A stretch of 64,000 bases of DNA from Candidatus Saccharimonadia bacterium (GCA_038251135.1 JBBSBR010000001.1:512-64511); one strand, 5' to 3'. Shown: positions 11,759-56,334, counted from the first letter of the stretch. Notes: generated by a model not told the origin, from the sequence alone. Numbers and translations are program-made.

Positions 11759-11800
11759 CTTCATTTGTCGGGCGGCCGCTTTTTTTGTAATAATCAGGTG

Positions 11801-13687
11801 CTAGGAGACCAACCCGGCCTTGATACGCCGTACGCCCGAGCTCGACGATTCCTCTTTGAGTATCTTGAATCTTTTGCCGTCGGCCGCTAATGCGCCGGTG
11901 TGCTCCACGTGCGGTCCGCCGCATATCTCCTTGGAGTACCAGTCGCCGTCCGGATCACCGGCCGTATAGACTTTGACCGTATCACCGTACTTGTCGCCAA
12001 ATGCCCCCAACGCGCCTTCCGCAAAAGCCTGTTCCGTCGGAATCTCGCGAAAGCCCATCGGCCAATCCTTGGTTATCTGTTCATTAACGATTTGCTCAAC
12101 TTTGGCGACCTGCTCAGTCGTCATCTTTTCGCCATGGCTAAAATCAAAGCGCAGCCGTTCAGGGGTAATATTGCTCCCCCGCTGAACCACGTGGTCGCCG
12201 AGAACCAGCCGCAGTGCTTTGTAAAGCAAGTGGGTCGCCGTATGGTACTTGACCGACATCTCGCTATGGTCGGCCAGTCCGCCTTTGAATTGGCCGGCAC
12301 TGGCGGTCCGGGAGCGCTCTTTCTGCTCGGCCATCAACCGGTCGAAGTCCTGGCGCCAATCAATATCGATATCGATCTGCCGCTCTTTGGCCTCTTCGAT
12401 GGTCAGCTCCCACGGGAAGCCGTAGGTGTCGGACAACAAGAATATGCTCTCGCCGTTCAAACTACCGTTCGAGAGTTTTTCAAACTCCCGCACGCCCCGC
12501 TCGAGAGTCTTGCGGAACTGCGCCTCCTCCCGAACCAGCACGTCGATCACCTCGAACTCTCGCTGGGCAACCTCGGGATAATCGTCACGGTAGAGTTTGG
12601 TAATGACCGGGATTGCGTGTTTCAAAAAATCATCGGTGAGGCCGAGGGCATGGGCCTGGCGGATGGCTCGTCGGACCAGCCTCCGGAGGACATAACCTTG
12701 TTGATTGTTGCTCGGCACCACCCCGTCGACGGCCAGGAAGGTAGCGGCGCGCAGATGGTCGGCAATGATACGCATGGGGGCGGTACTCGTCTCGTATGAC
12801 TTGCCGGACAGTTTCTCAAGCTCGACGATGATCGGCCAGATCAGGCTGATCCGGTAGACATCCGGCGAGTCGATGGCGGCCGCCGCAATTCTCTCCAAAC
12901 CCGACCCGTGGTCAATATTTTGGCTCTTTAAAGGCACGAATGATTTTTGCGTTTCTTTGACATAGGTCATAAAGACATTATTGCCCAGCTCCATAAACCG
13001 GCCGCAGTCACAGTTGGGGTGGCAATGCTCGCCAAATTCAGGATCATGCGGGGTGCCAAAATCGTAGAACATCTCCGAGTCCGGACCGCACGGATCGCCG
13101 ATCGGCGTAGTGGCCGGCTTGCCGCCGCGACTCCACCAGTTTTTTGATCCGTCGTAGTAGAAAATTCGCTCATCCTTATGCATGCCACGGCCGTAGCCGG
13201 CCGCTTCGGAACCTATCTCGGCCACCTTGGCCTTAATTCCCTTCGTCTCGAACAGACGCTGCCAAATCTCGGCGGCTTCGGCGTCTTTGGCAATGCCGAA
13301 CTCCGGCGCCCCGATAAAGCAGGTAACATATATCTTATTCGGATCCAGGCCTACGATCTCAGTCAAAAATTCAAACATCCACGGGATCTGCTCATCCTTA
13401 AAGTATGCCCCAAAACTCCAATTACCGAGCATTTCAAAAAATGTCGTGTGGCGATTGTCGCCGATCTCTTCAATGTCCTCGGCTCGAAAGGCCGGTTGCG
13501 AATCTACGACCCTGTCCCCCGCCGGATGCCGGGTCCCGAGCAGGTATGGCAGCAGCGGCTGCATGCCGCTGCCCGTGAAGAGCGTCGTCGCGTCTTCTTG
13601 CGGCACTAAATTGGCGCGAGGAATCACTACATGCCGGCGTTCGGCAAAGAATTTCAGGTAGGCTGAGCGAATTTCTTGGGTTGTCAT
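11801..13687 (-). CDS. alaS: Alanine--tRNA ligase. A compact 628-aa form that appears to lack the C-Ala domain.
   Basis: N-terminus MTTQEIRSAYLKFFAERRH. Editing-domain HTATHLL and CGGPHVEHTG zinc motifs lie at the C-terminus. The ORF ends shortly after them. Confidence 0.85.
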   Translation of the reverse strand: MTTQEIRSAYLKFFAERRHVVIPRANLVPQEDATTLFTGSGMQPLLPYLLGTRHPAGDRVVDSQPAFRAEDIEEIGDNRHTTFFEMLGNWSFGAYFKDEQIPWMFEFLTEIVGLDPNKIYVTCFIGAPEFGIAKDAEAAEIWQRLFETKGIKAKVAEIGSEAAGYGRGMHKDERIFYYDGSKNWWSRGGKPATTPIGDPCGPDSEMFYDFGTPHDPEFGEHCHPNCDCGRFMELGNNVFMTYVKETQKSFVPLKSQNIDHGSGLERIAAAAIDSPDVYRISLIWPIIVELEKLSGKSYETSTAPMRIIADHLRAATFLAVDGVVPSNNQQGYVLRRLVRRAIRQAHALGLTDDFLKHAIPVITKLYRDDYPEVAQREFEVIDVLVREEAQFRKTLERGVREFEKLSNGSLNGESIFLLSDTYGFPWELTIEEAKERQIDIDIDWRQDFDRLMAEQKERSRTASAGQFKGGLADHSEMSVKYHTATHLLYKALRLVLGDHVVQRGSNITPERLRFDFSHGEKMTTEQVAKVEQIVNEQITKDWPMGFREIPTEQAFAEGALGAFGDKYGDTVKVYTAGDPDGDWYSKEICGGPHVEHTGALAADGKRFKILKEESSSSGVRRIKAGLVS

Positions 13688-13822
13688 AGGTAGTATTGTA
13701 GCAAAATGATCTGTTGATATGAAAAATTAACCAGTTTCGACACGGAAAAGAGCGGCTTCACACCTGGTGAAACCGCTCTGATCCAATCGCATTTTCGGTG
13801 AAAGTTGCCATCCGCTCTCTCC

Positions 13823-14165
13823 TTAGCAAGCTTGAGAAAGTCCGGGCGACGATCGATTCTCGGTTGCTGCATCCGCAGGCATCGTCGGGTGGTCGAGCCA
13901 GTCCATAAGCCGGGCGGTATCGTTGCCGGCTGCAAGCGGGCGGTAGATCTCAAGCCACTCGGCCAGCCATGCCTCGCTGATGTTCCAGTAGTTGCATAGC
14001 CGCTGCAAACGATCACGATCATTTGCCCTGAGCTCTTGGAATGCGATCTTGGTCAGAAAGATCTTCACCGCCCCGGCCAGATCCGGGATCGTCTCCCCGG
14101 CCGGGATTTGGATCGCTGCCAGTTTCGCGTACCACTGCGCGACATCATTGCACATGACCTTCACC
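13823..14165 (-). CDS. Hypothetical protein. The ORF runs to 14215, but the likely start is the Met at 14165, which has a strong GGAGAGGAGG ribosome-binding site.
   Basis: Strong Shine-Dalgarno 8 nt upstream of ATG. No recognisable domain. Confidence 0.45.
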
Positions 14166-14237
14166 TCCTCTCCCAATGAAAGGTACGATTGGACGTAGGT
14201 AATTCTAGAATACAAATTTACGGGAATACATTGTCAC

Positions 14238-15281
14238 TTATTCCAAACTAATTAGGCCGCCACCGACCACCCTTTCATGATCGTAGACAACCGCCGATTG
14301 GCCGCCGGCGACGGCCCGCTCGGCACGCTCAAGGCGAACCGTCGCTCGGTTGACCTTCATCGAGAGCGTACCGGGGATCAGCGCACCGCGATGGCGCAGG
14401 CGCAGTCGATACGTTCGGCCGGTTTCCGGCGCATCATCAATCCAGTGGAGGTTTGTCAGGCCAAATTCGGCCGTCGCCAATTCGAGATCATTGGGATTAT
14501 CCGTGACGGTAACGGTATTGGCGGCCATATCTTTGGCGAGCACATAATACGGTCCGCCTCCGCCGATCCCCAGACCCTGACGCTGACCGACGGTATAGAA
14601 GACGGCACCCTCATGGGTACCGATTTTGGCGCCGTCACGATTCAAAATGCTCCCAGGCGTCGCAGCGATATATTGCCCCAGAAAGGCCTTGATACCCACT
14701 TCACCCACAAAACAGATCCCCTGTGAGTCAGGCTTATTGGCAGTGGGCAGGTCAAATTCAACAGCCAGCTGTCGGACTTCGGGTTTCGTCAGATCCCCCA
14801 ACGGAAAGATCGTCCGTGCCAGCGCCGCAGGTGTAATGCGGTAGAGAAAGTAACTTTGGTCCTTATTGGCATCGATCCCCATGGCGAGCCGACCGTCGAG
14901 GTTGCGTGCATAATGGCCAGTCGCGATCAGATCGGCACCGTCGGCCAGCGCCGCATCGAGAAAGAGTTTGAATTTAATCTCCTGATTACACATGATATCC
15001 GGATTAGGCGTTCGTCCGGCCTGATACTCCGCTATCATCGCGTCCACGACTTTTTCTTTGTATTCCGACTGAAAGTCAAAAAACTTAAAGGGAATGTCGA
15101 CCGCCACGGCCGCCGCGCGCGCATCGGCTAAGTCCTGCTTCCAGGGACAAGCGATACCGGCGACATCCAGCGTCCAATTCTTCATATAGACGCCCACGAC
15201 CTTATAGCCCTGCTGAACCAGCAAGGCGGCCGCTACCGACGAATCAACTCCGCCGCTCATTCCAACGTAGACCTTTTTCAT
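14238..15281 (-). CDS. mnmA: tRNA-specific 2-thiouridylase MnmA.
   Basis: PP-loop MKKVYVGMSGGVDSSVAA and conserved catalytic cysteines. Confidence 0.9.
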   Translation of the reverse strand: MKKVYVGMSGGVDSSVAAALLVQQGYKVVGVYMKNWTLDVAGIACPWKQDLADARAAAVAVDIPFKFFDFQSEYKEKVVDAMIAEYQAGRTPNPDIMCNQEIKFKLFLDAALADGADLIATGHYARNLDGRLAMGIDANKDQSYFLYRITPAALARTIFPLGDLTKPEVRQLAVEFDLPTANKPDSQGICFVGEVGIKAFLGQYIAATPGSILNRDGAKIGTHEGAVFYTVGQRQGLGIGGGGPYYVLAKDMAANTVTVTDNPNDLELATAEFGLTNLHWIDDAPETGRTYRLRLRHRGALIPGTLSMKVNRATVRLERAERAVAGGQSAVVYDHERVVGGGLISLE

Positions 15282-15314
15282 AACTGCTAGATTCTACGGC
15301 AATTAGGGAGAAAA

Positions 15315-15647
15315 TTAAATAGCCTTACCTGTGTCGGTATTTGGATGAATCACTTTGAGCCGTTCGACATCGCGTGAATCCTCGATGAGGGCGGTACGCA
15401 TCAGACGTTGCTCTTCTTTGATCTCGACGACCTCGGACTTCAGTTCGCCAACGTCCGTCTTCAGTATCGCGACGTCCGTCTTCAGCACCGCGACGTCCTC
15501 CTTAAGTACGGCGACATCGTCTTTCAGAACTGCGATATCCTCCTTCATTACGGGGATATCGCTCACATACTCCATAATGGCATCGAATTTGCCGTTCATA
15601 TCTTCCAACAAAACTTGGGTTCGATCATCGTCACGCACAGCCGCCAA
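15315..15647 (-). CDS. Small coiled-coil protein built from tandem heptad repeats (DVAVLKx)n.
   Basis: Protein repeat DIAVLKDDVAVLKEDVAVLKTDVAILKTDVGELKSEVVEIK is encoded by six 21-bp DNA repeats. Confidence 0.5.
   Translation of the reverse strand: MAAVRDDDRTQVLLEDMNGKFDAIMEYVSDIPVMKEDIAVLKDDVAVLKEDVAVLKTDVAILKTDVGELKSEVVEIKEEQRLMRTALIEDSRDVERLKVIHPNTDTGKAI
15438..15563 (-). repeat. Six imperfect 21-bp tandem repeats (cttcagNNNcgcgacgtccgt-like) inside the coiled-coil ORF.
   Basis: 21-nt periodicity is directly visible: cttcagttcgccaacgtccgt / cttcagtatcgcgacgtccgt / cttcagcaccgcgacgtcctc / cttaagtacggcgacatcgtc / tttcagaactgcgatatcctc / cttcattacggggatatcgct. Confidence 0.8.
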
Positions 15648-15722
15648 CTCCTCATTACCCTTATCTTACAGGCTTAGCCAGTTTGATTATACCGAACAAA
15701 AGCCGTAAATACGATACGACCG

Positions 15723-16688
15723 TTAATCGGTAAAGTCCTGCGTAATCATCAGTCCGTATATGCCGGCGTCAATAATCCCAATCCCAACGGTCGAATAATT
15801 GCTGGACAGAATATTCGCCCGATGGCCCGGTGAATTCATAAGACCCTGATGTGCCAGTTGCAGGGTCGGGGCCAAGGCCAGATTCTCCCCGGCCGAGCCA
15901 AACTTCACGCCCCCGACCCGCATGCGATCAAACGGCGAATGTCCGTCGGGATCAATATGCGAGAAAAAACCCTCGGCCAGCATCCGCTTGGAGTAATCCC
16001 GCGCCACCGCTCTGGCCTTGAGGTTTAGCGTCAGCGCCTTAAGACCGCGCGATGTTCGCTCGCGGTTAACGAGAATCAGCATTTGCTGTTCGCTCGCCTC
16101 GTCCACCACACCGTTGGTAGTCGTAAAACCCAGGTTTATCCGTTGCTCGCTCTCCGGCTCCGACGTCACGGTGAAGAAGTTCAGGCTCTCGCCCAAGTCG
16201 CGTCCAAGTGTGCCGGCCAGCGTCTGCTGGAGGCTGCCGGAGGTCTGGAGCAGCAGATGAGGAATGAGGGCGTTGGTAACCGGCTGCTTGGTACTCGCCG
16301 TCAATGGCAGGCTCGCAAAAAGGCTCAAACCCAGCGTTACAAGGATCAGCATCTTCGCGGCATTCAAGATACCGCCGATTATCTGCGATGGTAAATTGAG
16401 CCGAAAAAGGCCTTTGTAACGGCGAATAATTCCATATCTCAAGATGACTGCGAGCAGCAGCTCCGCTATGACCCAGATGATCAGGTAAGCTGCCACATCA
16501 GCCAAGGCGAGCGAGATACCGGTTTGTGCTTTTAGGAAGGCGCCGAGAGCCTGATACCCCACAAATGCGAAGGTTGTAGCGAGTATGAAACTGACGAGCT
16601 CCAAAGCGACGAGAGCGCCGCCACGGCGACTGCCCAAAAAGGCCGCGTAGCCCAAGATGGCGATAATTATAAGGTCGACGGCAATCAC
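15723..16688 (-). CDS. Fusion of a CvpA-family membrane domain and a CAP/SCP (YkwD-like) extracellular domain. GTG start overlaps the upstream stop as GTGA.
   Basis: N-terminal CvpA-like helices (MIAVDLIIIAILGYAAFLGSRRG...). C-terminal GFFSHIDPDG...GENLA...SPGHRANIL...YSTVGIGI CAP-domain motifs. Confidence 0.65.
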   Translation of the reverse strand: MIAVDLIIIAILGYAAFLGSRRGGALVALELVSFILATTFAFVGYQALGAFLKAQTGISLALADVAAYLIIWVIAELLLAVILRYGIIRRYKGLFRLNLPSQIIGGILNAAKMLILVTLGLSLFASLPLTASTKQPVTNALIPHLLLQTSGSLQQTLAGTLGRDLGESLNFFTVTSEPESEQRINLGFTTTNGVVDEASEQQMLILVNRERTSRGLKALTLNLKARAVARDYSKRMLAEGFFSHIDPDGHSPFDRMRVGGVKFGSAGENLALAPTLQLAHQGLMNSPGHRANILSSNYSTVGIGIIDAGIYGLMITQDFTD

Positions 16689-17293
16689 TTGCCGCCTACC
16701 AGCTCTTCATAGACCACCTTCTGAAACTCTGACAGCGTCAGGCTGCGGCTGTAGGGGGTAGCCCACCAAGCCGATCTGCGCCACGACTGATCATAGGATG
16801 AATGATTAATAATTACCGCGTCCGGACCGAGGGCCCGCTGAAAGATAATGAGCGCCCGCCGTTGATGGTATGGCGAAGTCACAAGGATGGCGGACTTGAG
16901 TCCGGCACTTTTCATGATGACCGCCACGTTCGCGGCATTTTCGCGGGTGTCGATCGAGGACTCGTCCATATAGATATCACTCGCCGGAACGCCCTCTTTC
17001 TCGGCTGCCAGCGCCATAGTCCGGGCATTTGACGGGCTGTTCGGGTCGAAGGCCGCACCGGAAAATATAAGCTTGGGAGCCCAGCCGTCGCGATACAGTT
17101 TAACCGCCTCTTGGGTTCTGGCCGCTGTCTCGCCGCCGCTGATCGCAATGATCACATCGGCCTTGGCGAGTTTGGACTGCGGGGAAAGATAAAAACCGAC
17201 AAACACCAACCCGATCGCAGCCAAGACCACGACCAGGAGAATGACTGAACTGAATATCACCGCCCAACGTTTCATACCTCTGTATTGTAGCAA
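16685..17293 (-). CDS. DUF218 / YdcF (SanA/ElyC-like) family protein.
   Basis: N-terminal TM helix, then AISGGETAAR...LIFSG...DTRENA...LVTSPYHQRRA DUF218 signature. Confidence 0.7.
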   Translation of the reverse strand: MLQYRGMKRWAVIFSSVILLVVVLAAIGLVFVGFYLSPQSKLAKADVIIAISGGETAARTQEAVKLYRDGWAPKLIFSGAAFDPNSPSNARTMALAAEKEGVPASDIYMDESSIDTRENAANVAVIMKSAGLKSAILVTSPYHQRRALIIFQRALGPDAVIINHSSYDQSWRRSAWWATPYSRSLTLSEFQKVVYEELVGGK

Positions 17294-17305
17294 GCGAAGC
17301 GAGGC

Positions 17306-18487
17306 CTACGCCAATTCTCGTACCCGTTCAACGATTTTCGGCAGTTCTTGAATAACCCGACCGATAACCCGATCGTCGGTCGATCGGCCAAACGTCAGAC
17401 GCAGACTCGCGTCCGCTTCGGTAGTCGTGCGGCCCAAGGCGAGAAGGACATGCGACGGCTCGAGGTCGCCGCTCGAGCAGGCCGATCCGGTGGAAGCCAT
17501 AATACCTGCCTTGTCCAGATAGAGTACGAGGGCTTCGCCGTCGGCGCCGGGGATCATAAAGTTTAGGTTATTTGGCAGGCGGTGCTTCAGGTCGCCGTTC
17601 AGGATGATACCGGGGATGAGCTCATGCAATTTGGCGTTCAGGCCGTCACGGAACTGAGACAAACGCCGGCTCTCGGTTTCGCGTTCGCGGGCGGCCAATT
17701 TCAAAGCAGCAGCCAGACCGACGATTCCCGCCACGTTCTCGGTTCCGCTGCGCCGTCCGCGCTCCTGACCGCCGCCATAAACCAACGGCTCAAGTATTAC
17801 GCCGTGGCGAACGTAGAGCAACCCGGAACCCTTCGGGCCGTAGATCTTCGAGCCGTTGATTGTCATGAGGTCGACATTGGTGCGGCTGACGTGCAGGTCC
17901 AGGTAGCCCGCTGCTTGGCAAGCATCGGTATGAAGGTAGATAGGCAGCCCGATCCCCCGCCGGTGACGGTCGTCGCGAATATCCGCAATCATCCGCGCGG
18001 TATCGACTACCGGCTGGATCGTTCCAATTTCATTGTTGGCAAGCATGAGGCTTACCAGTACGGTAGCATCGGTTACGGCAGCGCGCAGACGCTCGGTATC
18101 GACTATCCCCTTGTCCGATACCGGTACCACCGCGGCCTCATGGCCGCTTCTGCGCATCGGTTCAATACAACCCAAAACCGCGTCGTGTTCAATTGCCGAG
18201 GTCACCCAATGCGCTCCGGGATGGGCACGCAGAACTCCCTGGATGGCCAGATTATCGCTCTCCGTACCGCCGCCGGTAAATATTATTTCGGTTGGTTTAG
18301 CTCCCAGAGTATCGGCAATCGTAGCCCTGGATGATTCGACCGCAAAACGTGTCGCCCGGGCTGCACCATAAACGCTCGAGGGATTGGCGTACTCGGTCGT
18401 AAAGTACGGCTGCATCGCCTCAAGGACTCTTGGATCAATCGGCGTCGTCGCGGCGTGGTCGAGATAAATCGGCTGGGATTTTGGCAT
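17306..18487 (-). CDS. Cysteine desulfurase (class V aminotransferase, IscS/NifS-like).
   Basis: IYLDHAATTP N-terminus. PLP-lysine region INGSKIYGPKG. C-terminal SSGSACSS active-site cysteine loop. Confidence 0.85.
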   Translation of the reverse strand: MPKSQPIYLDHAATTPIDPRVLEAMQPYFTTEYANPSSVYGAARATRFAVESSRATIADTLGAKPTEIIFTGGGTESDNLAIQGVLRAHPGAHWVTSAIEHDAVLGCIEPMRRSGHEAAVVPVSDKGIVDTERLRAAVTDATVLVSLMLANNEIGTIQPVVDTARMIADIRDDRHRRGIGLPIYLHTDACQAAGYLDLHVSRTNVDLMTINGSKIYGPKGSGLLYVRHGVILEPLVYGGGQERGRRSGTENVAGIVGLAAALKLAARERETESRRLSQFRDGLNAKLHELIPGIILNGDLKHRLPNNLNFMIPGADGEALVLYLDKAGIMASTGSACSSGDLEPSHVLLALGRTTTEADASLRLTFGRSTDDRVIGRVIQELPKIVERVRELA

Positions 18488-18489
18488 AG

Positions 18490-19245
18490 CTAAATCCTAA
18501 AGAGCCGTTCGGCATTATGCGTGGTGGCCGACGACAGGTCTTCGAGCGGTTCCCCTCGCAAATTAGCCAAAAATTCGGCCGTAAAGGCGGTAAATGCCGG
18601 CTCGTTCGGTTTGCCGCGTTTGGGTACCGGCGCCAGAAACGGCGAGTCGGTTTCAAGTAAGAGCCTATTAAGCGGAACCCGCCGGGCGGCTTCGAGTTGC
18701 TGCGGGACTTTGGTGAAAGTCATAATGCCGTTTAATGCCACATAGAGCCCCCGCTCAATTGCCACCTCCATCTCCGTCACACCCGCCGTAAAGCTGTGAA
18801 CCACTCCGCGGACATCATCGTACTCGTCGAGAATCCGATAGAAATCATCGAAAGCTTCGCGGACATGAAAAACCATCGCCAAATCGCGCTCTAGGGCCAG
18901 TTCGATCTGATAACGAAATGCCCGTTCCTGGGCGTACTTGTCGTAACCTTCACGATAGTAATCAAGTCCGCACTCCCCTATCGCCACGACCTTTTCAAAC
19001 TCCGCCAACCGAGCGATCTCATCGAGCGCCTCGTAGCCGCGATCGGCCTCGTCGGGATGCAGCCCTACCGATGCCCAGATGTGCTCGTAGGCTTTGGCGA
19101 CCGCAATCGCTTCGGCACTGTCGTCTTCTTCGACGCCAATCGTTATGATCTTCATGACGCCGGCTTCATGAGCGCGCTCAAGAATACCGTCGAGCTCGTC
19201 GCGGGCATCATGGAAATGAATGTGGGCGTGGGTATCAATCAGCAT
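18490..19245 (-). CDS. tatD: TatD-family metal-dependent DNase/hydrolase.
   Basis: MLIDTHAHIHF N-terminal HxH motif and TIM-barrel hydrolase pattern. Confidence 0.85.
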   Translation of the reverse strand: MLIDTHAHIHFHDARDELDGILERAHEAGVMKIITIGVEEDDSAEAIAVAKAYEHIWASVGLHPDEADRGYEALDEIARLAEFEKVVAIGECGLDYYREGYDKYAQERAFRYQIELALERDLAMVFHVREAFDDFYRILDEYDDVRGVVHSFTAGVTEMEVAIERGLYVALNGIMTFTKVPQQLEAARRVPLNRLLLETDSPFLAPVPKRGKPNEPAFTAFTAEFLANLRGEPLEDLSSATTHNAERLFRI

Positions 19246-19247
19246 GA

Positions 19248-20705
19248 CTAACCTTTGATATCGAGATCCGTCTTGGCAATCGTGTCGAACTTGGGAAACA
19301 GCAGCCCGACGCTTGAATCGACCTTGCCGCCCGCAAAGGTAGCCGTAATCTTCTGCGATGTTGCCGGCAGAAACGGTAGGAGCAAAGTCGCGATCTGATC
19401 CAAGTCCGACACGGCGTGGTGCAGGACCAGCAGCAACTGCTCATTATCGACACCCGCAAGCTTCCACGGTTTCTCTTCTTCAAGATAAAGGTTTAAGCCC
19501 TTCACCAGACTCCAGATTTCCTCGAGGGCGCGGTCAAAACGGAAAGCCTCAAGCGCCGCGTAATACGACTTGGCGTCGTGCGAGTGAGGCTCAAGTTCGC
19601 CGCTGATGCCGCCGAAATACTTGATGACCATGGCGGCTACGCGCTGCACCAGGTTGCCGAGTTCGTTGGCGAGATCGGTATTGTAGAGCGTCTCCATACG
19701 GTTCCACGAAAAGTCACCGTCGCCGTCGGCCGGTATCTCGCGCAGCAGGTAGTAACGCAGAGCGTCGACATTGTACTTATCTACGACATCGCGGGGACTG
19801 ACGACGTTGCCGAGCGATTTACTCATCTTGTGACCTTCGCTGGTAATAAAACCGTGGACGTAGAGCGTTGAAGGCAGCGGAAGCTCAGCCGACATCAGCA
19901 TGGCGGGCCAAATGGCAGCGTGGTGGCGCAGGATGTCCTTGCCTATAATCTGTACGTCGGCTGGCCAGAACTTGGCAAGCTTATCGCTCTTGGGGTAACC
20001 GAGAGCCGTAATGTAGTTGGCCAGAGCGTCAAACCACACGTACATCACCTGCTGAGGATCGCCGGGAACCTCGATTCCCCATTTGAGCTGCTTGATGTCG
20101 CGGGAGATACTCACGTCCTCGAGCCCGCGCTCCAGCAACGCCAATATCTCATTCTTACGCGACAGCGGCCGAACCTGGAATTTATCCGATGCGATCAGGG
20201 TCTTGATGGCGCCCGTGTAGGCGGAGAGCTTAAAAAAGTAATTCTCTTCCTCGATCTCTTCGAGCTTGGTTTTGTGGATCGGGCAAATATGATCCGGTAC
20301 GTCGATGTCGGTATAGAATGTCTCGCAGCCCACGCAGTACCAACCCTTATAGGCGGCCTTGTAGATGTCTTTAGCACAGGCTTTCCAGAGGACCTGGGCG
20401 GCCTTCTTGTGCCCGGCATCGCTGGTGCGGATAAACTGATCGTTCGTAACGTTGAGCATTACGGCCAGATCACGAAACTGCTCGCTCATGTTGTCGACGT
20501 AGAGCTGAGGAGTCAGTTTGGCCTCATCGGCAGCCCGCGAAATCTTGATGCCGTGCTCGTCCGTTCCGGTAAGGTACCAGACTTCATCTCCCCGCTGGCG
20601 GTGGATACGGGCCAAGACATCGCCCTGAACCAGCTCCATGGCATAGCCGATATGCGGCGGTGCATTGGTATAAGCGATGGAGGTTGTTACGAAAAATTTG
20701 GACAT
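19248..20705 (-). CDS. metG: Methionine--tRNA ligase (compact form).
   Basis: HIGY (HIGH-like) motif in TSIAYTNAPPHIGYAM and KMSKS motif HKMSKSLGN. Confidence 0.9.
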   Translation of the reverse strand: MSKFFVTTSIAYTNAPPHIGYAMELVQGDVLARIHRQRGDEVWYLTGTDEHGIKISRAADEAKLTPQLYVDNMSEQFRDLAVMLNVTNDQFIRTSDAGHKKAAQVLWKACAKDIYKAAYKGWYCVGCETFYTDIDVPDHICPIHKTKLEEIEEENYFFKLSAYTGAIKTLIASDKFQVRPLSRKNEILALLERGLEDVSISRDIKQLKWGIEVPGDPQQVMYVWFDALANYITALGYPKSDKLAKFWPADVQIIGKDILRHHAAIWPAMLMSAELPLPSTLYVHGFITSEGHKMSKSLGNVVSPRDVVDKYNVDALRYYLLREIPADGDGDFSWNRMETLYNTDLANELGNLVQRVAAMVIKYFGGISGELEPHSHDAKSYYAALEAFRFDRALEEIWSLVKGLNLYLEEEKPWKLAGVDNEQLLLVLHHAVSDLDQIATLLLPFLPATSQKITATFAGGKVDSSVGLLFPKFDTIAKTDLDIKG

Positions 20706-20761
20706 GTCGGGCGCCTCTTAACTTGGGCAATCGTACCATGCGCAGCTCTCCCTCACCAAGT

Positions 20762-21580
20762 CTAGGCCGGAAGCTGGCCTTTCGATTTCTTATGACGGCG
20801 GCCGAAGGTCTTGGCGAGAAAGTGAACAGCCGCCAGCAAAATCGCCAACCCCAGAGAAACGGCCGCCGACACCCACAGCGCATGGGCTTGATCTTGGGCG
20901 ACTCGTTCGGTGAGCGGTTTTACGGCCGGGGTCAGGAGCTTCCAGACGGAAGTATCGAGTGCCGAGGCTATGAGTTGCGGAGGTGAGTAGGCGAGCACGC
21001 CCAGGATGCCCAATAGCACCGCCGCCAGAGCAAATGATCCGGCCAGCACCGACCAGCGACGGTGGGGGCTGACAATGAATATCAGAGCCGCCAGTACCAA
21101 GCTCACCAGCGGTCCGAGCCAAAGAGCCTGCGCACCCCGCGCAGACGCGGCCTTGAGTATCTCGTCAAACTTGCCGGCGCTCAGGGTGGTCGGTGTCTCT
21201 ATGAAGCTTTTGAGTTTTGGCGGAACGGGCAAGCCGGCGTTGGTTATACCAGCTTCGAGGTCCCGCAAGTCAAGTTGCGGCTGTTGACCCGTACCGCGGA
21301 AATAATCGAGCATCTGGGGAGTCAGCGTGTCCAGCTGGCCCTGAAGATAGGCCGGCGTTAGGGCCTCCTTCATGGCAAGTCGGGTTTCCTCGGACTCACC
21401 GGTAACTTGTACTGCCACGTCCGGCAGCACGTTCGCCAGCGTGTCGGCCAAGTTCGCATCGTGCATTTGGGTCGTGAGGTACGTCGCACTCCAAACAGTC
21501 TGATTCAATACCCAAGCCTGAACGGCGACAGCCAGACTAATCGCCAGCAGAAGGCCAAGAAACTTCCCAATCCATTTCAT
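20762..21580 (-). CDS. Hypothetical membrane protein.
   Basis: N-terminal and C-terminal hydrophobic helices. No known domain. Confidence 0.45.
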   Translation of the reverse strand: MKWIGKFLGLLLAISLAVAVQAWVLNQTVWSATYLTTQMHDANLADTLANVLPDVAVQVTGESEETRLAMKEALTPAYLQGQLDTLTPQMLDYFRGTGQQPQLDLRDLEAGITNAGLPVPPKLKSFIETPTTLSAGKFDEILKAASARGAQALWLGPLVSLVLAALIFIVSPHRRWSVLAGSFALAAVLLGILGVLAYSPPQLIASALDTSVWKLLTPAVKPLTERVAQDQAHALWVSAAVSLGLAILLAAVHFLAKTFGRRHKKSKGQLPA

Positions 21581-22408
21581 CTAGATAATGTCCTCAGCGA
21601 TGGCCAGGTCGTAGAGTCGGTGCCAGTCGTCCAGACTTAACTCCTGAGCACGGGACGTCGACTCAAGTCTGGCGCGAATAATTAAATCGACCGCGAGATC
21701 ACCGGATAAATTTAACCCGCCCGCCAGAGCATTCTTGAGCTGCTTACGCTTCTCGCCGAAGCCGGCCTTAATCAAGCGAAAAAGACGTTGCGGGTCGGCC
21801 GGAAAGGCCGGCCCGGTCACTTCCACGCGGACCACGGCCGAATCGACCTTGGGCGCGGGCCAAAACTTATGACGCTCGACGATCGCAACTATCTCGGGCC
21901 GACCATAGTACTGCACCGATAGCCCTAGGACCGATAACTTGCCCGGTTGAGCCGTCAGACGCTCGGCAACCTCTTTTTGGATCAGCACGCTCATCACCGA
22001 GGGTGGATTTGGGCTCTCGATAAACAATCTGAAGATTTTCGAAGTCAGGTAATACGGAATATTGGCGATGACTTTGTAACCGCGGGGCAGTGACTTTGTA
22101 TCAAATTTTAAAATATCCTGCTCGACAACCTCCAAGTTCGCCGGAGCATCCCGCTCCAGCAAGCTCACCAGAATCGCATCGGTCTCGACCGCCACGACCT
22201 TGCCGGCCCGTTCGGTGAGCGGCCGTGTCATCACGCCCAATCCCGGGCCGATCTCGAGCACGGTATCTTGAGGCAGCGGACCGGCGGCATCGATAATTGC
22301 CAGGAGGCTCTCGCCGTCTACCAGAAAATGCTGGCCCAATTGTTTGTTTGGACGAATGCCGGCCAGTTTTAAGGCTGTCCGGACATCTTCTACGCGTGAA
22401 AGATCCAT
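21581..22408 (-). CDS. rsmA: 16S rRNA (adenine1518/1519-N6)-dimethyltransferase RsmA/KsgA.
   Basis: LGQHFLVD SAM-binding motif and VLEIGPGLG. Confidence 0.9.
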   Translation of the reverse strand: MDLSRVEDVRTALKLAGIRPNKQLGQHFLVDGESLLAIIDAAGPLPQDTVLEIGPGLGVMTRPLTERAGKVVAVETDAILVSLLERDAPANLEVVEQDILKFDTKSLPRGYKVIANIPYYLTSKIFRLFIESPNPPSVMSVLIQKEVAERLTAQPGKLSVLGLSVQYYGRPEIVAIVERHKFWPAPKVDSAVVRVEVTGPAFPADPQRLFRLIKAGFGEKRKQLKNALAGGLNLSGDLAVDLIIRARLESTSRAQELSLDDWHRLYDLAIAEDII

Positions 22409-22434
22409 GGTGTAAGTGTATCACGGGGTAGGCG

Positions 22435-22484
22435 CCTCCAGGGGATGCTACTGGCGTGAGGGATTAGTTTGTATCCCCTGGGGA
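22435..22484. repeat. Roughly 50-bp palindromic repeat element, intergenic copy, with CCAGGGGATGC / GCATCCCCTGG arms.
   Basis: cctccaggggatgctactggcgtgagggattagtttgtatcccctgggga. About 78% identical to the reverse complement of 26566-26615. Confidence 0.7.
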
Positions 22485-22499
22485 CACAACCTACCTACC

Positions 22500-23738
22500 T
22501 TATTTACAGGCCCAGGGAGCGGTGCCGTACAGGGCCATCTTCTTGGCGGTTATCTGAATTTGGGTCGACCCGTCGAAGATATTGGCATCGGTGCCCCCGG
22601 CTGCGCGCCAGGTTGATGGCAGGTATTGGAAGAGGCCCGTTGCGTGCTCACCGTTAACCGTCGCCGTATTCACAGAAGTTGCGTGTCCATGCGATTCACA
22701 ATTCATAATGCGCAACATCATATTGGGATCTATGCCCCACTGCGCAGCCGCCGCTACCACCTCGGGGCGCCAGTACTCGACCGAACCCATGAAGAACTCC
22801 TTGGTGCCAACGACCTGCACCTTAGGGATCGGGGCGGTCTGGCTCACCAGCTTCACGATCTGGCGGCTCGTTTCGACGCCGTCACGATAATGGATACGGT
22901 ACGTAACGGTCTTTGAGCCGTCGGCCCCCGCTGAGACGACGTTGATGACACCCTTGGCCAGATTCGGATCGGTCGTGCTGGTCGTAGGACGGGGCAGGAC
23001 ACTGGTTTCGGTCGTAATCACCTCGGATACGCGGACGATTGCAACGGCCATGCTCGGCACAATCGCACTATCCAGGGGAGCCGAAACGGTATCCTTGGGC
23101 CCAACGATGATGCCGGCACGCAGAAGCGCATCGTCGAGGCGCTTAGCCTGAGTGCGGATCGACCGAACCTGACCGTCGACTTTAACCGTCAGCGGAGTCG
23201 CCCGACGGATTGTGATCTGCTCGCCGATAGTGCCGTAGCCCACAAAATCCGTGACTACGGAGCTGGTGTATTCGTCTTCGTGGTAGACTTTATATCCGGC
23301 CTGCCCGGCGATCGCTTCGGGGCTCTGCGATGTGCTCCTAACTATTCGCGATTGCGTACCGTCCACGACCAGAACCGGACGGGCGCGATAAACGTTGATA
23401 TTGAACATATTTCCGGCGATGACCGTAGCGGCGTTCGGATCGGTCGTGTCGCCGTCACGCAGGACGATACCGGCACGCTTTAAGAACTCGCCGACAGTGT
23501 GATCATCGGTGGAGATTACATGTTTAGATCCGTCGACATACAACGAGACTAACCGGGCGGAGTCGGCGGAAGCCGAAGGCGCTGGCGGAAACTGTCCCGA
23601 TGTGAGGACGAAACTAAGGATTGCGATGAGAAAAACGATACTGTAGGTGTTGCGCGGGCGGCGTTGCGCCCAACGAAGGAGATTAGATATCGTTTCTGTA
23701 AATGAGCTTAAAATGGGAGTCTCTCTCGTTATCAACAA
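22500..23738 (-). CDS. RpfB/YabE-like secreted protein with DUF348 repeats, a G5 domain and a C-terminal lysozyme-like (Rpf-type) transglycosylase domain.
   Basis: C-terminus IMNCESHGHATSVN...ATGLFQYLPSTW resembles the Rpf transglycosylase domain. A G5-like segment precedes it. N-terminal TM anchor. Confidence 0.7.
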   Translation of the reverse strand: MLITRETPILSSFTETISNLLRWAQRRPRNTYSIVFLIAILSFVLTSGQFPPAPSASADSARLVSLYVDGSKHVISTDDHTVGEFLKRAGIVLRDGDTTDPNAATVIAGNMFNINVYRARPVLVVDGTQSRIVRSTSQSPEAIAGQAGYKVYHEDEYTSSVVTDFVGYGTIGEQITIRRATPLTVKVDGQVRSIRTQAKRLDDALLRAGIIVGPKDTVSAPLDSAIVPSMAVAIVRVSEVITTETSVLPRPTTSTTDPNLAKGVINVVSAGADGSKTVTYRIHYRDGVETSRQIVKLVSQTAPIPKVQVVGTKEFFMGSVEYWRPEVVAAAAQWGIDPNMMLRIMNCESHGHATSVNTATVNGEHATGLFQYLPSTWRAAGGTDANIFDGSTQIQITAKKMALYGTAPWACK

Positions 23739-23813
23739 GGAGGGCTTTGGTTTTTAAGCTTTTGGTTTTATCTCGCTTATGGTATCGCGTTATCTGGAAA
23801 GAGTCAATGTTGA

Positions 23814-24746
23814 CTACTTATTGTGTTCAGTGTCCGCCGAAGAATCTTTGGGTATCACGACATCGCCCGGAGCGGCACCGCGGTCTTCGCTCGAGACGGG
23901 CTCAATCGGCTCGACGGCCGCCGCCGACTCGGTGTTGGTGGCTGCCGAATCCTCGGTATTGGCAACGGTTATTGGCGGTTCGGGGAGCTCTGCCACGCCG
24001 CCGGTTGCAACCGACTGGTCGCTACTAGCAGCCGTTTCGGCTGAACTGCCGGGGATTACGACGGCCGGCTGAACGACAGGTGCGATCTCGACCGGTGCGG
24101 GTTGGGGTCCAGGGCCAGAGCCAAAACCCTGGGGCAGTTTTGGCGCACTAGCGCCAAACCGCCGGTCGAAAACCACTGCCAGTGCCGCTAGGACCAGAAA
24201 CAAACCCGCCAGCAAACCGGCGCTAATCCGCTGGAGATTCGTATCACTGGTGGTTAGGAGGCCGGTAATCGAGACCAACAGCGTAAACCCAGCCCCGGAT
24301 CCAAGTCCATAAACCAACGCCGGTAGCCCGATAAACCCGATGATACTCACGATTCCCAGCAGTGCAAAACCGATGCCAAGCATCGACCGGTAGGTGGTGA
24401 CCCGATCGTTGTACTCCTGATCGGCCTTCAGCTGGTCGGCGTTGGCCTTAATCGCCCGCTCATAGGCGGCGTTCTTCTGGCTGTACGAAGCCAAATCCCG
24501 GGCGTACTGCGCTTTGAGTGAAGCGCACAGTGCCGGGTTTGCAGTTTCATACTTACGGGTTGAGGCGTTATAAGAAATGGAACAGTCCGGACCGTAGGTT
24601 GGATCGCTCGGAGAACTCGGTGATACCGGATAAGGGGTTGGTGTGGAGGTTCGCGTCGGGATAAAAGTTACACCGGCGTAGAGCACAAAGACCGGAAAGA
24701 CGATCGCGATGGCGAGACCCAGAAAAACTTGCGCCGTACGATTCAT
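23814..24746 (-). CDS. Hypothetical membrane protein with a Pro/Ala-rich C-terminal tail.
   Basis: N-terminal TM helix, two central helices, low-complexity Pro-rich C-terminus. Confidence 0.45.
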   Translation of the reverse strand: MNRTAQVFLGLAIAIVFPVFVLYAGVTFIPTRTSTPTPYPVSPSSPSDPTYGPDCSISYNASTRKYETANPALCASLKAQYARDLASYSQKNAAYERAIKANADQLKADQEYNDRVTTYRSMLGIGFALLGIVSIIGFIGLPALVYGLGSGAGFTLLVSITGLLTTSDTNLQRISAGLLAGLFLVLAALAVVFDRRFGASAPKLPQGFGSGPGPQPAPVEIAPVVQPAVVIPGSSAETAASSDQSVATGGVAELPEPPITVANTEDSAATNTESAAAVEPIEPVSSEDRGAAPGDVVIPKDSSADTEHNK

Positions 24747-25262
24747 TTATTTGTGCTCCTTGCTGCTAAAGTAGATGGCCAAACCAATAAGCGCGATGAG
24801 CACGACAAATACCACCAGCAGCGTCGCACCCGAACCAAAATTGGTGAAGATATAGGGTGCGGCAAGCAGAATTGAGGTGATACCGACGGCCATCATCAGA
24901 ATGCTGACCAGTCGGTAGCGCAGCAGCAAGAGGCCGGCAGCCAGCACGGCGAATCCGCCGACGAGGCGTACCGCAAAGATACTGCCCTCGCCCTCCATGC
25001 CCATCAGCCAAGTCGGCAGAATGTAGAGGGCTGATGCCCCGGCGTAAAAGGCGGACGCCAGCAGGACGCCGAGTGTGAGTTGGCGCGGGGTCAGCTCCGT
25101 GACCGATGTGTGCATACCGGTTCCCGATCCTGCCGCGGCTTTCTGCCCGCGATGCGTCACCGCACGCACGATGAGTACGATAATCACGACCGGCAGGGCC
25201 AGACTGAACAGCAAGCCGAAGACGATGTAGAGAATAATGAAGCCGATACTCGATGTGTCCAT
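24747..25262 (-). CDS. Hypothetical polytopic membrane protein.
   Basis: Four or five predicted helices. Stop/start abuts the downstream ORF. Confidence 0.45.
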   Translation of the reverse strand: MDTSSIGFIILYIVFGLLFSLALPVVIIVLIVRAVTHRGQKAAAGSGTGMHTSVTELTPRQLTLGVLLASAFYAGASALYILPTWLMGMEGEGSIFAVRLVGGFAVLAAGLLLLRYRLVSILMMAVGITSILLAAPYIFTNFGSGATLLVVFVVLIALIGLAIYFSSKEHK

Positions 25263-25364
25263 AGCAGTATCGTAGTGATCACGCTTATGCTTGTCAAACT
25301 AATCGCCGTGACGAAGCCAATTTAAGCCATAGATTTCGAAGTCCCGCGGACAGGCCTAGTGGTA

Positions 25365-27728
25365 TTAATCGGCTTTTTTGATCGGTGCGAAAGACAATGA
25401 CAGGCGCTTAGTGCCGATGCCGGAGAAGGTCGCCGTAACCTCGTCGCCGTCAATGGCCGCCACAATTCCCTCGCCAAACTTAGCGTGGGTAATGCGGTCG
25501 CCCGGGGCTAAGTCGAGGCCGAGCAACTCCTCACGGTGCTTGGCGGTATCCTGCACGATGGACGCCGAGTACATCGGTTGAGCGCTCCACGAACCGGCCC
25601 CGGTCGCGTGGCCGGCCGCACCGCCGCCAAAGATTGAGTCGCCGTTGATATTGCCCGAGCGGACGTTCACGCCCCACTCGCTGCCGGCGCCCTGTAATTC
25701 AGGCGGGATTTCGAGGATGAAACGTGAGGGCGGATTGTGATTGGTGCTGCCGTAGAGCAGCCGGGTATTGGCATACAGCAGATACAGCCGCTCTTTGGCG
25801 CGGGTCATACCCACGTAGCAGAGCCGGCGCTCCTCCTCCATCTGCTCGCCGTCGAAGAGCGAACGGGAGTGCGGGAATATCCCCTCCTCCATGCCGGCCA
25901 TGAATACCACCGGAAATTCCAAGCCCTTGGCGGCATGCAGCGTCATCAGGGTAACGGCATCGGTGTCCTGGGAGTAGTTATCGATATCCGAGATTAGCGC
26001 CACCTCCTCCAGAAAGCCTTGGAGAGTCAGCTCGTTGTAGGTTGCGGCGACACTTAAGAGTTCTTTGACGTTTTCAATACGGTCGGCGGCCGTGACGGTG
26101 CCGTCGTCGAGATAGTTGATGTAGCCGGATCGCTTCAATATGAGATCAAGCAAGGGCCCGACGGGCAGCTTCTCGGCCTCACGCCTGAGTCCGTCGATGA
26201 GGATGGCAAAATTCTGCAAGGCGTGGACCGCGCGCACCTGAAGGCCGGGAACCCGGTCGGCATCGCGGAGCGCCTCGAGCAAACTCTGATTATTGAGCCG
26301 CCGATGCGACTCCAGGCGGGACAAGCTCACGTCACCCAGACCTCGCGGGGGGAGGTTGATGATCCGCCCGAAACTCACCAGATCGTCCGGCTGATAGACG
26401 AATCTCAGATAGGCCATAGCGTCCTTGATCTCGCGCCGTTCATAGAAGCGGGTTCCGCCGACGATCTTGTAGGGAATCGCCGCGCGCAGAAACGACTCCT
26501 CAAGCGTCCGGGACTGGGCATTGGTGCGGTAGAGGACGGCAAAATCCGCGAGCGAGCGATTAGTGCCCCCGGGGGATGCAACTAATCCCAAAACGCTGGC
26601 AGCATCCCCTGGGGACCCTGCCAGCTCTTGGATCGTCCGGGTAATCGTCTCCCCCTCCTGGATCTCGTTATAGACGTTGATTACCCCGACGCCCTCACCG
26701 GCTCCGGCCTCGGTCCAGAGTTGCTTGTCCGATCTCACGCGGTTCTTACTGATTATGGCGTGGGCGCTGTCGAGAATGTTCTTGGTCGAACGGTAATTCT
26801 GCTCGAGCTTCACGACGGTCGCCGCGGGATAGTCCTTCTCAAAGTCGAGGATATTCTGGAAATTGGCTCCGCGCCAGCTGTAGATACTCTGCCAGTCGTC
26901 GCCGACCACGCAGAGATTATTGTGGCCGGCGGCCAGCAATTTCGTCACCTGGTACTGTGCATGGTTAGTGTCCTGATACTCGTCGACCATGATGTATTGG
27001 AATCGCTGCTGATATTTGGCGAGGATCTCGGGGTGCTGCTTAAACATCTGCACCGTATAGAAGATTATATCGTCGAAATCAACCGCCCCGGCCTCCTTGA
27101 GGATGCCCTGATAGACCGGATAGACGGTCGCCGCGGCCTGCTGGGCGCGGCCCGAGGCGAGTTTAGAATAATTCTGCGGTCCGATAAGTTCGTTCTTGGC
27201 GCTCGATATGAGCCCGGCAATGGAATTGGGCGTGAACTGCTTATCGTCGATGCCGGTGTTGCGGATGGCCCGCTTAATGGCCGACATTGAGTCGGCAGCG
27301 TCAAAAATCAGGAAGTTGCTCGGCAGCCCAATCTCGGAAGACTCGTTTCTGAGCAAGCGCAAACAGGTTGCGTGAAAGGTGCCGATGTACGGAAAGTAGC
27401 TGCGGTTCTCGGGGCTGAGGCCGAGCAGTTTCAGGACCCGGCCGCGCATCTCGCCGGCGGCCTTGTTGGTGAACGTCACGGCCAGGATGCTTGCCGGCTC
27501 AACCTGGCGCTCAGCGACCAAATACGCGATCCGGTGAGTGAGCGCCTTGGTCTTGCCCGAACCGGCGCCAGCCAAAATTAGAACCGGGCCCTCAGTCGTG
27601 GTGGCGGCGGTTCGTTGTGGCTCATTGAGGTCGGCTAGGAGTGGGTGCACTAGGTATAATTTTAACTCATGCCGAGTCTGCTCGCCAGATCTGTACATCC
27701 CACAAAAGGGTTGCCAAATAGCGCGCAA
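25365..27728 (-). CDS. uvrD: ATP-dependent DNA helicase UvrD/PcrA. The true start is probably downstream of the ORF-track start. It contains an in-frame copy of the palindromic repeat.
   Basis: Walker A AGAGSGKT. LYRTNAQSR motif IV region. C-terminal UvrD_C and Tudor-like tail. Confidence 0.85.
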   Translation of the reverse strand: MRAIWQPFCGMYRSGEQTRHELKLYLVHPLLADLNEPQRTAATTTEGPVLILAGAGSGKTKALTHRIAYLVAERQVEPASILAVTFTNKAAGEMRGRVLKLLGLSPENRSYFPYIGTFHATCLRLLRNESSEIGLPSNFLIFDAADSMSAIKRAIRNTGIDDKQFTPNSIAGLISSAKNELIGPQNYSKLASGRAQQAAATVYPVYQGILKEAGAVDFDDIIFYTVQMFKQHPEILAKYQQRFQYIMVDEYQDTNHAQYQVTKLLAAGHNNLCVVGDDWQSIYSWRGANFQNILDFEKDYPAATVVKLEQNYRSTKNILDSAHAIISKNRVRSDKQLWTEAGAGEGVGVINVYNEIQEGETITRTIQELAGSPGDAASVLGLVASPGGTNRSLADFAVLYRTNAQSRTLEESFLRAAIPYKIVGGTRFYERREIKDAMAYLRFVYQPDDLVSFGRIINLPPRGLGDVSLSRLESHRRLNNQSLLEALRDADRVPGLQVRAVHALQNFAILIDGLRREAEKLPVGPLLDLILKRSGYINYLDDGTVTAADRIENVKELLSVAATYNELTLQGFLEEVALISDIDNYSQDTDAVTLMTLHAAKGLEFPVVFMAGMEEGIFPHSRSLFDGEQMEEERRLCYVGMTRAKERLYLLYANTRLLYGSTNHNPPSRFILEIPPELQGAGSEWGVNVRSGNINGDSIFGGGAAGHATGAGSWSAQPMYSASIVQDTAKHREELLGLDLAPGDRITHAKFGEGIVAAIDGDEVTATFSGIGTKRLSLSFAPIKKAD
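26566..26615. repeat. Second copy of the roughly 50-bp palindromic repeat. It sits in-frame inside uvrD and encodes GSPGDAASVLGLVASPGG.
   Basis: cccccgggggatgcaactaatcccaaaacgctggcagcatcccctgggga. Its reverse complement aligns to 22435-22484 at about 43 of 55 positions. Confidence 0.7.
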
Positions 27729-36849: not shown

Positions 36850-36867
36850 CCCCGAATGCAATACCAA

Positions 36868-36899
36868 GAAAAAGACCTCACGCTGCGTGAGGTCTTTTT
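36868..36899 (-). terminator. Rho-independent, bidirectional-type terminator directly 3' of tRNA-Glu.
   Basis: aaaaagacctcacg-ctg-cgtgaggtcttttt. 9-bp perfect stem, 3-nt loop, A5/T5 flanks. Confidence 0.8.
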
Positions 36900-36901
36900 C
36901 T

Positions 36902-36976
36902 TGGTAGTCCCACGGGGAATCGAACCCCGGTTACCAGGATGAAAACCTGGCGTCCTAACCGTTAGACGATGGGACC
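36902..36976 (-). tRNA. tRNA-Glu (anticodon UUC) with an encoded CCA.
   Basis: Minus-strand sequence GGTCCCATCGTCTAACGGTTAGGACGCCAGGTTTTCATCCTGGTAACCGGGGTTCGATTCCCCGTGGGACTACCA. Cloverleaf with anticodon loop TTTTCAT and GTTCGATTC T-loop. Confidence 0.8.
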
Positions 36977-56227: not shown

Positions 56228-56334
56228 AACCCAATCATAGCATTTATAGTCACCGGGCTCCCCAGGGGAGACGGACTCGGCTTTTTTTATGGTGTAATAG
56301 GGTTATTTGGGTGTCAGGAAGTACTATCTATGCT

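Follow-up and report, generated by a model that had tools for sequence, protein, structure and literature searches.

A short hairpin-forming repeat present in an intergenic spacer and in frame within the PcrA helicase gene of a Saccharimonadia bacterium

The stretch of DNA analyzed here, 64,000 nucleotides (nt) of Candidatus Saccharimonadia bacterium (GCA_038251135.1, contig JBBSBR010000001.1) and hereafter called the window, carries a palindromic repeat of about 50 nt twice, once in the spacer between rsmA (ksgA) and an RpfB-like gene and once inside the gene for the PcrA/UvrD helicase. All three genes are on the minus strand. The rsmA/ksgA gene (RrnaAD; 21581..22408) is the downstream neighbor of copy 1, and the RpfB-like gene (DUF348, G5, SLT/transglycosylase; 22500..23738) is its upstream neighbor, copy 1 being contained in the 91-nt spacer that extends from the RpfB-like stop (22500) to the rsmA start (22408). 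The PcrA/UvrD gene is at 25365..27650, with a probable GTG start at 27650 deduced from homologue alignment; its longest open reading frame (ORF) extends to 27728, and the helicase motifs are all intact. Both 50-mers lie where an initial annotation of this DNA had placed them, copy 1 at 22435..22484 between ksgA and the RpfB-like gene, and copy 2 at 26566..26615 within the helicase gene.

Read on the plus strand, copy 1 is composed of arms at 22435-22448 (CCTCCAGGGGATGC) and 22471-22484 (GTATCCCCTGGGGA) with a loop at 22449-22470 (TACTGGCGTGAGGGATTAGTTT), and copy 2 of a left arm at 26566-26579 (CCCCCGGGGGATGC), a loop at 26580-26601 (AACTAATCCCAAAACGCTGGCA), and a right arm at 26602-26615 (GCATCCCCTGGGGA); on the minus strand, copy 2 reads TCCCCAGGGGATGC-TGCCAGCGTTTTGGGATTAGTT-GCATCCCCCGGGGG. 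The two copies are separated by 4.1 kb, are inverted with respect to each other, and make up the longest inverted repeat in the window (50 nt, 72% ungapped). The reverse-complement match of about 78% given in the initial annotation was reproduced, with copy 1 matching the reverse complement of copy 2 at 40 of 51 positions (78%) when two 1-nt gaps are introduced, and the local alignment score of 48 is to be compared with a maximum of 24 among 2116 other window tiles on either strand (mean 12.5, standard deviation 2.05). The termini are inverted in both copies, as had also been claimed, being CCAGGGGATGC / GTATCCCCTGG with one G·T pair in copy 1 and, in the gene-strand reading, CCAGGGGATGC / GCATCCCCCGG with one A·C mismatch in copy 2. 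Terminal inverted repeats of the kind expected of a miniature inverted-repeat transposable element (MITE) are thus present (CCAGGGGATGC / GCATCCCCTGG), and can be extended in copy 2 to about 17 nt. The 14-mer GCATCCCCTGGGGA, with two mismatches at most, has five occurrences in place of the 0.47 expected, all but one of them being the four arms.

Both copies form, on either strand, a long hairpin with a 13-bp stem and a 22-nt loop, with folding energies of -23 to -31.5 kcal/mol (z = -2.5 to -3.6). A 10-nt loop core (GGGATTAGTT) is common to the two copies, the inner stem of the element is GGGGATGC / GCATCCCC, and the arm tips are themselves palindromic 11-mers (TCCCC-W-GGGGA); the stem differences between the copies are non-compensatory. 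A covariance model built from the two copies (R1) scored its own sources at 77.7 bits (copy 1) and 79.3 bits (copy 2). Copy 1 has ACTGGC at the place of GCCAGC in copy 2, which is nearly a 6-nt inversion. A secondary near-palindrome of 31 nt with 13 of 15 pairs formed is found at 26595..26625, centered on the CCTGG of the copy 2 right arm; in it, GCTGGCAG from the copy 2 loop is paired with CTGCCAGC in the PcrA flank (codons E-L-A), at a roughly estimated p of ~0.002. Both copies are present also in Logan contig L022 (run SRR19962010), which is 100% identical to window positions 11581-27472 (15.9 kb), and the exact KsgA protein was found on the NCBI contig too. Since the NCBI contig and L022 each contain both copies, the repeat pair is not an artefact of a single assembler.

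Copy 2 is in frame within PcrA, before motif IV, and encodes GSPGDAASVLGLVASPGG, in agreement with the initial annotation. The net insertion amounts to 48 nt (16 codons) on the minus strand at 26568..26618 and encodes about GSPGDAASVLGLVASP, corresponding to residues 361-378 of the 777-residue reading; its ends are ambiguous by 3 nt (26568-26615 or 26571-26618) owing to a second GGG 48 nt away. Of the window PcrA and 26 close homologues aligned with it, only the former has the 16 extra residues, and the closest homologue (P0001; 92% amino acid identity in the alignment, 90% by BLASTP) reads ELSAK----DGR where the window PcrA has ELAGSPGDAASVLGLVASPGGTNR. Among Saccharimonadia PcrA homologues, 116 were scorable in having recognizable anchors; YNExxExE and LYRTN are separated by 22 residues in 109 of them, as compared with 38 residues in the window protein. 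A few homologues show small shifts in loop length (+1, +6, and +8 residues), and the window insert is absent from all 116, one of which (P0110, described below) carries an unrelated insert in the loop. The solved structures of Geobacillus stearothermophilus PcrA (1pjr) and Mycobacterium tuberculosis UvrD1 (9dci) likewise show a gap of 15-16 residues there, after PcrA V344, so that the insertion of about 16 residues proposed in the initial annotation is borne out. In addition, apart from the PcrA insert, the ~14 kb of DNA alignable with a sister species contains no large coding indel.

These observations support the view that the PcrA copy is a lineage-specific in-frame insertion and not a conserved linker. 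The latter would have been indicated, according to the initial annotation, by orthologues sharing the same peptide without the palindrome; it is contradicted because the orthologues are entirely devoid of the peptide. Four of the six reading frames of copy 2 are open. Copy 1 carries a TAG in the frame corresponding to that used in PcrA, which copy 2 avoids by two compensating 1-nt indels, and the orientation of copy 2 relative to transcription is opposite to that of copy 1.

In an AlphaFold2 model of the window PcrA (mean predicted local distance difference test score (pLDDT) of 71), residues 362-378 have a pLDDT below 50, and the insert is predicted to be a disordered loop between the helix of residues 345-361 and the strand of residues 386-390, which bears motif IV (FAVLYRTNAQSR). 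By the established domain layout of PcrA/UvrD, this loop belongs to the RecA-like domain 2A and not, as had been supposed in the initial annotation, to the 2B domain. The helix-to-strand connection is probably at the edge of the fold, on the side facing away from the nucleotide and DNA sites. An intein remnant was considered as the origin of the insert and rejected; a 16-residue loop encoded by a palindrome is not intein-like, and the inteins of homologues are located, by rough estimate, away from the loop. Many Saccharimonadia/Patescibacteria PcrA proteins of 940-1190 residues do contain intein domains (PF14890, Hint), that is, protein-level selfish insertions in the same gene (P0017, P0044, P0050, P0055, P0068, P0069, P0071, P0082, P0086-P0088, P0096, P0097, P0100, P0103, and P0106), their distance from the insert loop being a rough estimate from alignment coverage.

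The surroundings of copy 1 can be compared with those in the sister species (loci L146 and L147), in which the gene order is conserved, KsgA is 87% identical, and PcrA has 744 residues without the insert, the nucleotide identity to the window being about 75-81%. The RpfB-rsmA spacer of the sister is 223 nt long; what it has in common with that of the window is limited to GGTAGG directly following the stop, CGCNCTACCCC, and some 15 nt in front of the ATG. In the window, the shared flanks (GGTAGG ... CGCNCTACCCC) surround copy 1 and pair with each other as an outer stem at 22427..22495 (GGTAGG, 22427-22432; CCTACC, 22490-22495), whereas in the sister a short unrelated sequence stands between them instead of copy 1. 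The other sequence found between the shared flanks in the sister shows that the spacer does not conserve copy 1, which, judging from these flanks, sits inside a pre-existing hairpin-like site. The element sequence is absent in the sister species from the orthologous positions of both copies. A Rho-independent terminator was rejected as an identity for copy 1, which has no T-run and a 22-nt loop, with no terminator called in 22200-22700. The sister spacer itself contains a different, AT-rich hairpin of 80 nt (L146 4826-4905, the same in L147) with 20-bp arms (-33.5 kcal/mol, z = -7.2), which resembles another small palindromic element.

Seven of the 116 PcrA homologues have a deviant loop length, and one of these, P0110, from the metagenome-assembled genome of a distant Saccharimonadia lineage (GCA_016307145.1, locus L149), has 17 extra residues. 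P0110 is 68% identical to the window PcrA, and its exact protein is present in two assemblies, while its nearest relatives in the set (70-72% identity) are without an insert. The extra residues are encoded by an in-frame insertion of 51 nt at L149 2478-2532 (contig JADMIO010991010.1), translated as RPGLETKNDADHNSRPGL, which forms a perfect 16-bp inverted repeat (AAGACCAGGTCTTGAA / TTCAAGACCTGGTCTT) with a 23-nt loop and follows the pattern AAGACCWGGTCTTGAA-N23-TTCAAGACCWGGTCTT. The insertion points of the two proteins differ by about four codons, being after the conserved Arg in P0110 and before Thr-Asn-Arg in the window protein, and the P0110 insertion is for this reason an independent event. 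The two elements are similar in size (51 versus 48 nt) and in loop length (23 versus 22 nt), and the arm tips of both are CCWGG-centered palindromes (AGACC-W-GGTCT in P0110 versus TCCCC-W-GGGGA in the window), with CCWGG at nt 3-7 of the 13/14-nt arm and read as CCA-GGN (Pro-Gly) in each case. In contrast, the arm and loop sequences of the P0110 element are unlike those of the window element, and it occurs as a single copy in the 13.6 kb examined.

This second, independent palindromic insertion in the PcrA loop suggests that the phenomenon recurs. Smaller loop insertions in P0037 (+8 residues) and P0010 (+6 residues) were also inspected and set aside as not clearly palindromic. Two further observations were made in L149. 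A second, imperfect palindrome (3395-3477) lies in the variable C-terminal linker of the P0110 protein, with the motifs GTATCCGG / CCGGATAC and AGTATCC / GGATACT, and encodes ...YPVSSIRPAPTPNTGYPV...; and a short hairpin, GAGGATGCG-NNNA-ATCCTC, is present in two copies (5030-5048 and 11311-11329), the former being in the RpfB-rsmA spacer and followed by a T-run, with a stem that resembles the inner stem of the window element.

On balance, we lean toward the reading that the two copies in the window belong to a small, non-autonomous hairpin element, specific to this lineage and of the MITE, repetitive extragenic palindrome (REP), or Rickettsia palindromic element (RPE) kind. Such an element would measure about 48-54 nt, with terminal inverted repeats of 13-17 nt ending in the palindromic tips and a 22-nt loop. 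Copy 1 would have landed in the loop of a hairpin already present in the spacer between the RpfB-like gene and rsmA, and copy 2 in PcrA, adding a disordered loop of 16 residues to the helix-to-strand connection of domain 2A, at an edge away from the ATP and DNA sites. We propose that the PcrA copy survived because its length is a multiple of three, its frame is free of stops, and the connecting loop is permissive. The element would presumably have moved by copy-and-paste or cut-and-paste through an enzyme acting in trans, the PcrA insert would be selectively neutral, and further copies may be expected elsewhere in the genome.

Several lines of evidence support a low-copy hairpin element. The repeat is far beyond chance, both copies fold as one hairpin type, and both are found in two assemblies; the PcrA insert is absent from the homologues and the solved structures and is the only large coding indel, and the sister spacer lacks the element and yet retains the common flanks. 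The open frames of copy 2, as against the stops in the corresponding frame of copy 1, and the low-confidence segment predicted between the helix and the motif IV strand are in agreement with this reading, as is the P0110 lineage with its own 51-nt insertion in the same loop. In-frame palindromic insertion is, moreover, an established behavior of MITE-like elements (PMC10969869, PMC2229807, PMC5896051).

A number of results weigh against a mobile family. The copy number is two within 64 kb, as no third copy was found in the window by a fuzzy pattern, by short-word BLASTN, or by R1 with its filters off, and no further copies were found in ~130 kb of related Saccharimonadia loci (the R1 scan covering L001, L024, L025, and L146-L148, and a scan for hairpins with CCNGG arms alone covering L149-L151). 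A scan of GTDB, one genome per species, with the pattern CCAGGGGATRC-N14-34-GYATCCCCYGG yielded 20 matches, each a solitary hairpin from an unrelated phylum; the loop core was missing throughout, and Saccharimonadia were not represented. As the source genome gave no match itself, it is outside the GTDB collection scanned. The stem plus loop-core pattern gave one chance match and no family member in JGI metagenomes, the match being inside an apparent Fe-dependent alcohol dehydrogenase-type gene (read from the translated peptide only), and IMG/VR yielded generic hairpins only, with alignment scores of 28 or less. The open-frame translations (six, concatenated) had no match among 5.8 billion protein clusters, in a search of low sensitivity to diverged copies and against a database without the window's own PcrA. 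The GTDB, JGI, IMG/VR, and peptide scans are all specific to the sequence of this element, and diverged relatives would be missed.

The insertion sites and the surrounding genes add to these difficulties. The only sign of a target-site duplication is the 3-nt GGG, 48 nt apart, at copy 2, with none at copy 1, and there is no clean empty site because the sister is only ~75% identical in DNA. No transposase, RAYT, methyltransferase, or restriction gene is present in the window, and the copies, merely 78% identical and 4.1 kb apart, would also fit a one-off local copying. Homology between the window and P0110 elements was considered on the basis of their loops (GCGT...TTAGT) and set aside as unsupported, since 633 of 3000 shuffles reached an equal score.

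The initial annotation had, in addition, noted a weaker partial match near 56262, which does not hold up as a third copy; an exact TCCCCAGGGGA is present at 56259-56269, at chance level (0.82 expected), with unrelated flanks and no significant fold. It lies in an AT-rich intergenic region between divergent genes and is followed by GGCTTTTTTT.

The likeness to known element families is partial. RPEs (RPE-1 to RPE-10) are palindromes found between genes and in frame in housekeeping genes, with several open frames and inserts located in surface loops compatible with the host protein fold, in small, reduced genomes of host-dependent bacteria (PMC10969869), and in all these respects the window element is similar; its 48-nt PcrA insert leaves the host protein intact with all motifs kept. 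RPEs are, however, ~100-150 nt long, number tens of copies per genome, encode a conserved peptide, and are confined to Rickettsia with analogues in Wolbachia, whereas the window element is 48-54 nt long, has two known copies in 64 kb with no other in-frame copy detected by the peptide search, and resides in Saccharimonadia of the Candidate Phyla Radiation (CPR). Because length, host, and apparently sequence differ, the element is not a member of the RPE families. The selfish, RPE-like character ascribed to it in the initial annotation stands insofar as a palindrome is tolerated in a housekeeping gene, but with two copies only, a multi-copy selfish family is not demonstrated.

Intragenic MITEs, such as the Coxiella QMITEs, ERIC, Correia/NEMIS, and cyanobacterial MITEs, are similarly short and non-autonomous, with terminal inverted repeats and a strong hairpin, with occasional in-frame fusion of bacterial MITEs to host ORFs (PMC5896051, PMC10969869, PMC2229807). 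In its behavior, the PcrA copy is like an RPE or an intragenic MITE (PMC10969869, PMC5896051, PMC2229807). Those MITE families differ in their high copy number, in the target-site duplications that usually flank them, and in the parent insertion sequence that can often be identified, features so far not found for the window element. REP/REPIN elements (RAYT, TnpA_REP) share with it the size range, the imperfect palindrome, the arrangement of two inverted arms with a short spacer, and the lineage specificity of the sequence; but REPs are extragenic, highly repeated, and accompanied by a RAYT gene in the genome, whereas one of the two copies here is inside PcrA and the window contains no RAYT (Y1 transposase) gene.

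A single ectopic copying event, by which an intergenic hairpin was copied once and in inverted orientation over 4.1 kb into PcrA, with no mobile family behind it, is the main rival explanation, though an unlikely one in our judgment. Break repair with filler capture, template switching, or gene conversion may have provided the route, after which selection would have trimmed the product to an open 48-nt insert. In favor of such an event, there are exactly two copies, near each other and inverted, and the searches of the window, of related loci, and of the databases gave no other; the compensating 1-nt indels that remove from copy 2 the TAG of the copy 1 frame fit it too, and the complementarity of the copy 2 loop segment to the PcrA flank (26595-26625) calls templated repair to mind. 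At least one related genome encodes Ku and LigD. On the other hand, the 22% divergence implies that the event is old or that copy 1 was not the source, copy 1 itself is absent in the sister species, and an independent palindromic insertion in the same loop of another lineage points to a recurrent process. Template-switch events are, furthermore, known over tens of bases and not over 4 kb, which also weighs against this explanation. The Ku and LigD genes are in L150 (1698-4936, related Saccharimonadia), the latter being a full LigD (ligase and Prim-Pol), beside PGK and TIM, and represent a possible non-homologous end-joining route for filler-DNA insertions.

It is decidedly improbable that the hairpin is a selected functional one, either as an RNA structure for regulation or processing or as a protein-binding DNA site on the TCCCCWGGGGA palindromes. 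The self-palindromic 11-mer arm tips do have the typical shape of a dimer-binding site, copy 1 is in the spacer of two co-oriented genes, and in the P0110 lineage a perfect 16-bp stem is retained at this PcrA loop. Nevertheless, the covariance models of Rfam 15, at gathering and permissive thresholds, detected only a tRNA-Glu in the window and nothing above noise at either copy, no terminator signature is present, 109 of the 116 PcrA homologues have no insert of any kind, other sequence occupies both sites in the sister species, and the copies show no compensatory changes in their stems. No enrichment or avoidance of CCWGG is seen (108 observed in the window versus 113 ± 10 expected), which speaks against a functional hairpin and gives no sign of restriction-modification pressure on this sequence. 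Finally, a chance likeness between an ordinary intergenic hairpin and a variable PcrA linker, to which the slightly variable loop length in a few homologues might lend itself, or an assembly artefact, is effectively refuted by the alignment score twice the maximum found otherwise in the window, by the stem and loop core common to both copies, by the identity of the two assemblies, and by the intact ORF with all helicase motifs.

Going beyond a low-copy element in a single lineage, we may speculate, although this is rather improbable at present, that Saccharimonadia (CPR) host a class of hairpins of ~50 nt defined by structure, with CCWGG-centered palindromic arm tips and a loop of ~22 nt, that is repeatedly inserted in frame, with the PcrA loop before motif IV as a recurrent site of landing or retention and the elements of the window and of GCA_016307145.1 as diverged members. 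The elements might then prefer the PcrA site because they target DNA prone to hairpin formation or interact with the helicase gene itself. Hairpins with CCNGG arms numbered nine in a scan of ~190 kb from Saccharimonadia (2.7 expected), three or four of them being convincing, namely copy 1, copy 2, the P0110 insertion, and one intergenic hairpin in L024; long hairpins in general are not enriched above shuffles in the Saccharimonadia loci. The L024 hairpin (19602-19647) is situated between convergent genes and has 13-bp arms with CCCTGGG / CCCAGG and a 20-nt loop, a design like that of the window element.

At present, the repeat has the status of a well-documented curiosity, with one clean in-frame insertion and one intergenic copy; the P0110 parallel makes a structure-defined hairpin class in the CPR a testable idea and lifts the finding above the routine. 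The independent insertions in the PcrA loop offer a natural experiment on insertion-tolerant protein sites, and a marker for strain typing. A real family behind the two copies, if there is one, would represent the first description from the CPR of a coding palindrome like those of RPEs or MITEs, and would mean that the repeat-poor episymbiont genomes of ~1 Mb are also colonized by selfish hairpins that remodel essential proteins. The literature searched contained no link of MITEs or palindromic repeats to Saccharibacteria or Patescibacteria.

As for the window as a whole, its G+C content is 54.6% and its gene content is of the housekeeping type, and the PcrA and KsgA homologues are all from Saccharimonadia/Candidatus Saccharibacteria (TM7, Patescibacteria). 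The genes include those for LysM-CHAP, YceG, AlaRS, MnmA, CysRS, TatD, RsmA, the RpfB-like protein, PcrA, TIM, PGK, PK, ABC transporters, and two-component systems. At 36862-36906, there is an inverted repeat with perfect 22-nt arms and a 1-nt center (TACCAAGAAAAAGACCTCACGC / GCGTGAGGTCTTTTTCTTGGTA), which adjoins the 3' end of the tRNA-Glu gene (36902-36976, minus strand) with an overlap of a few bases.

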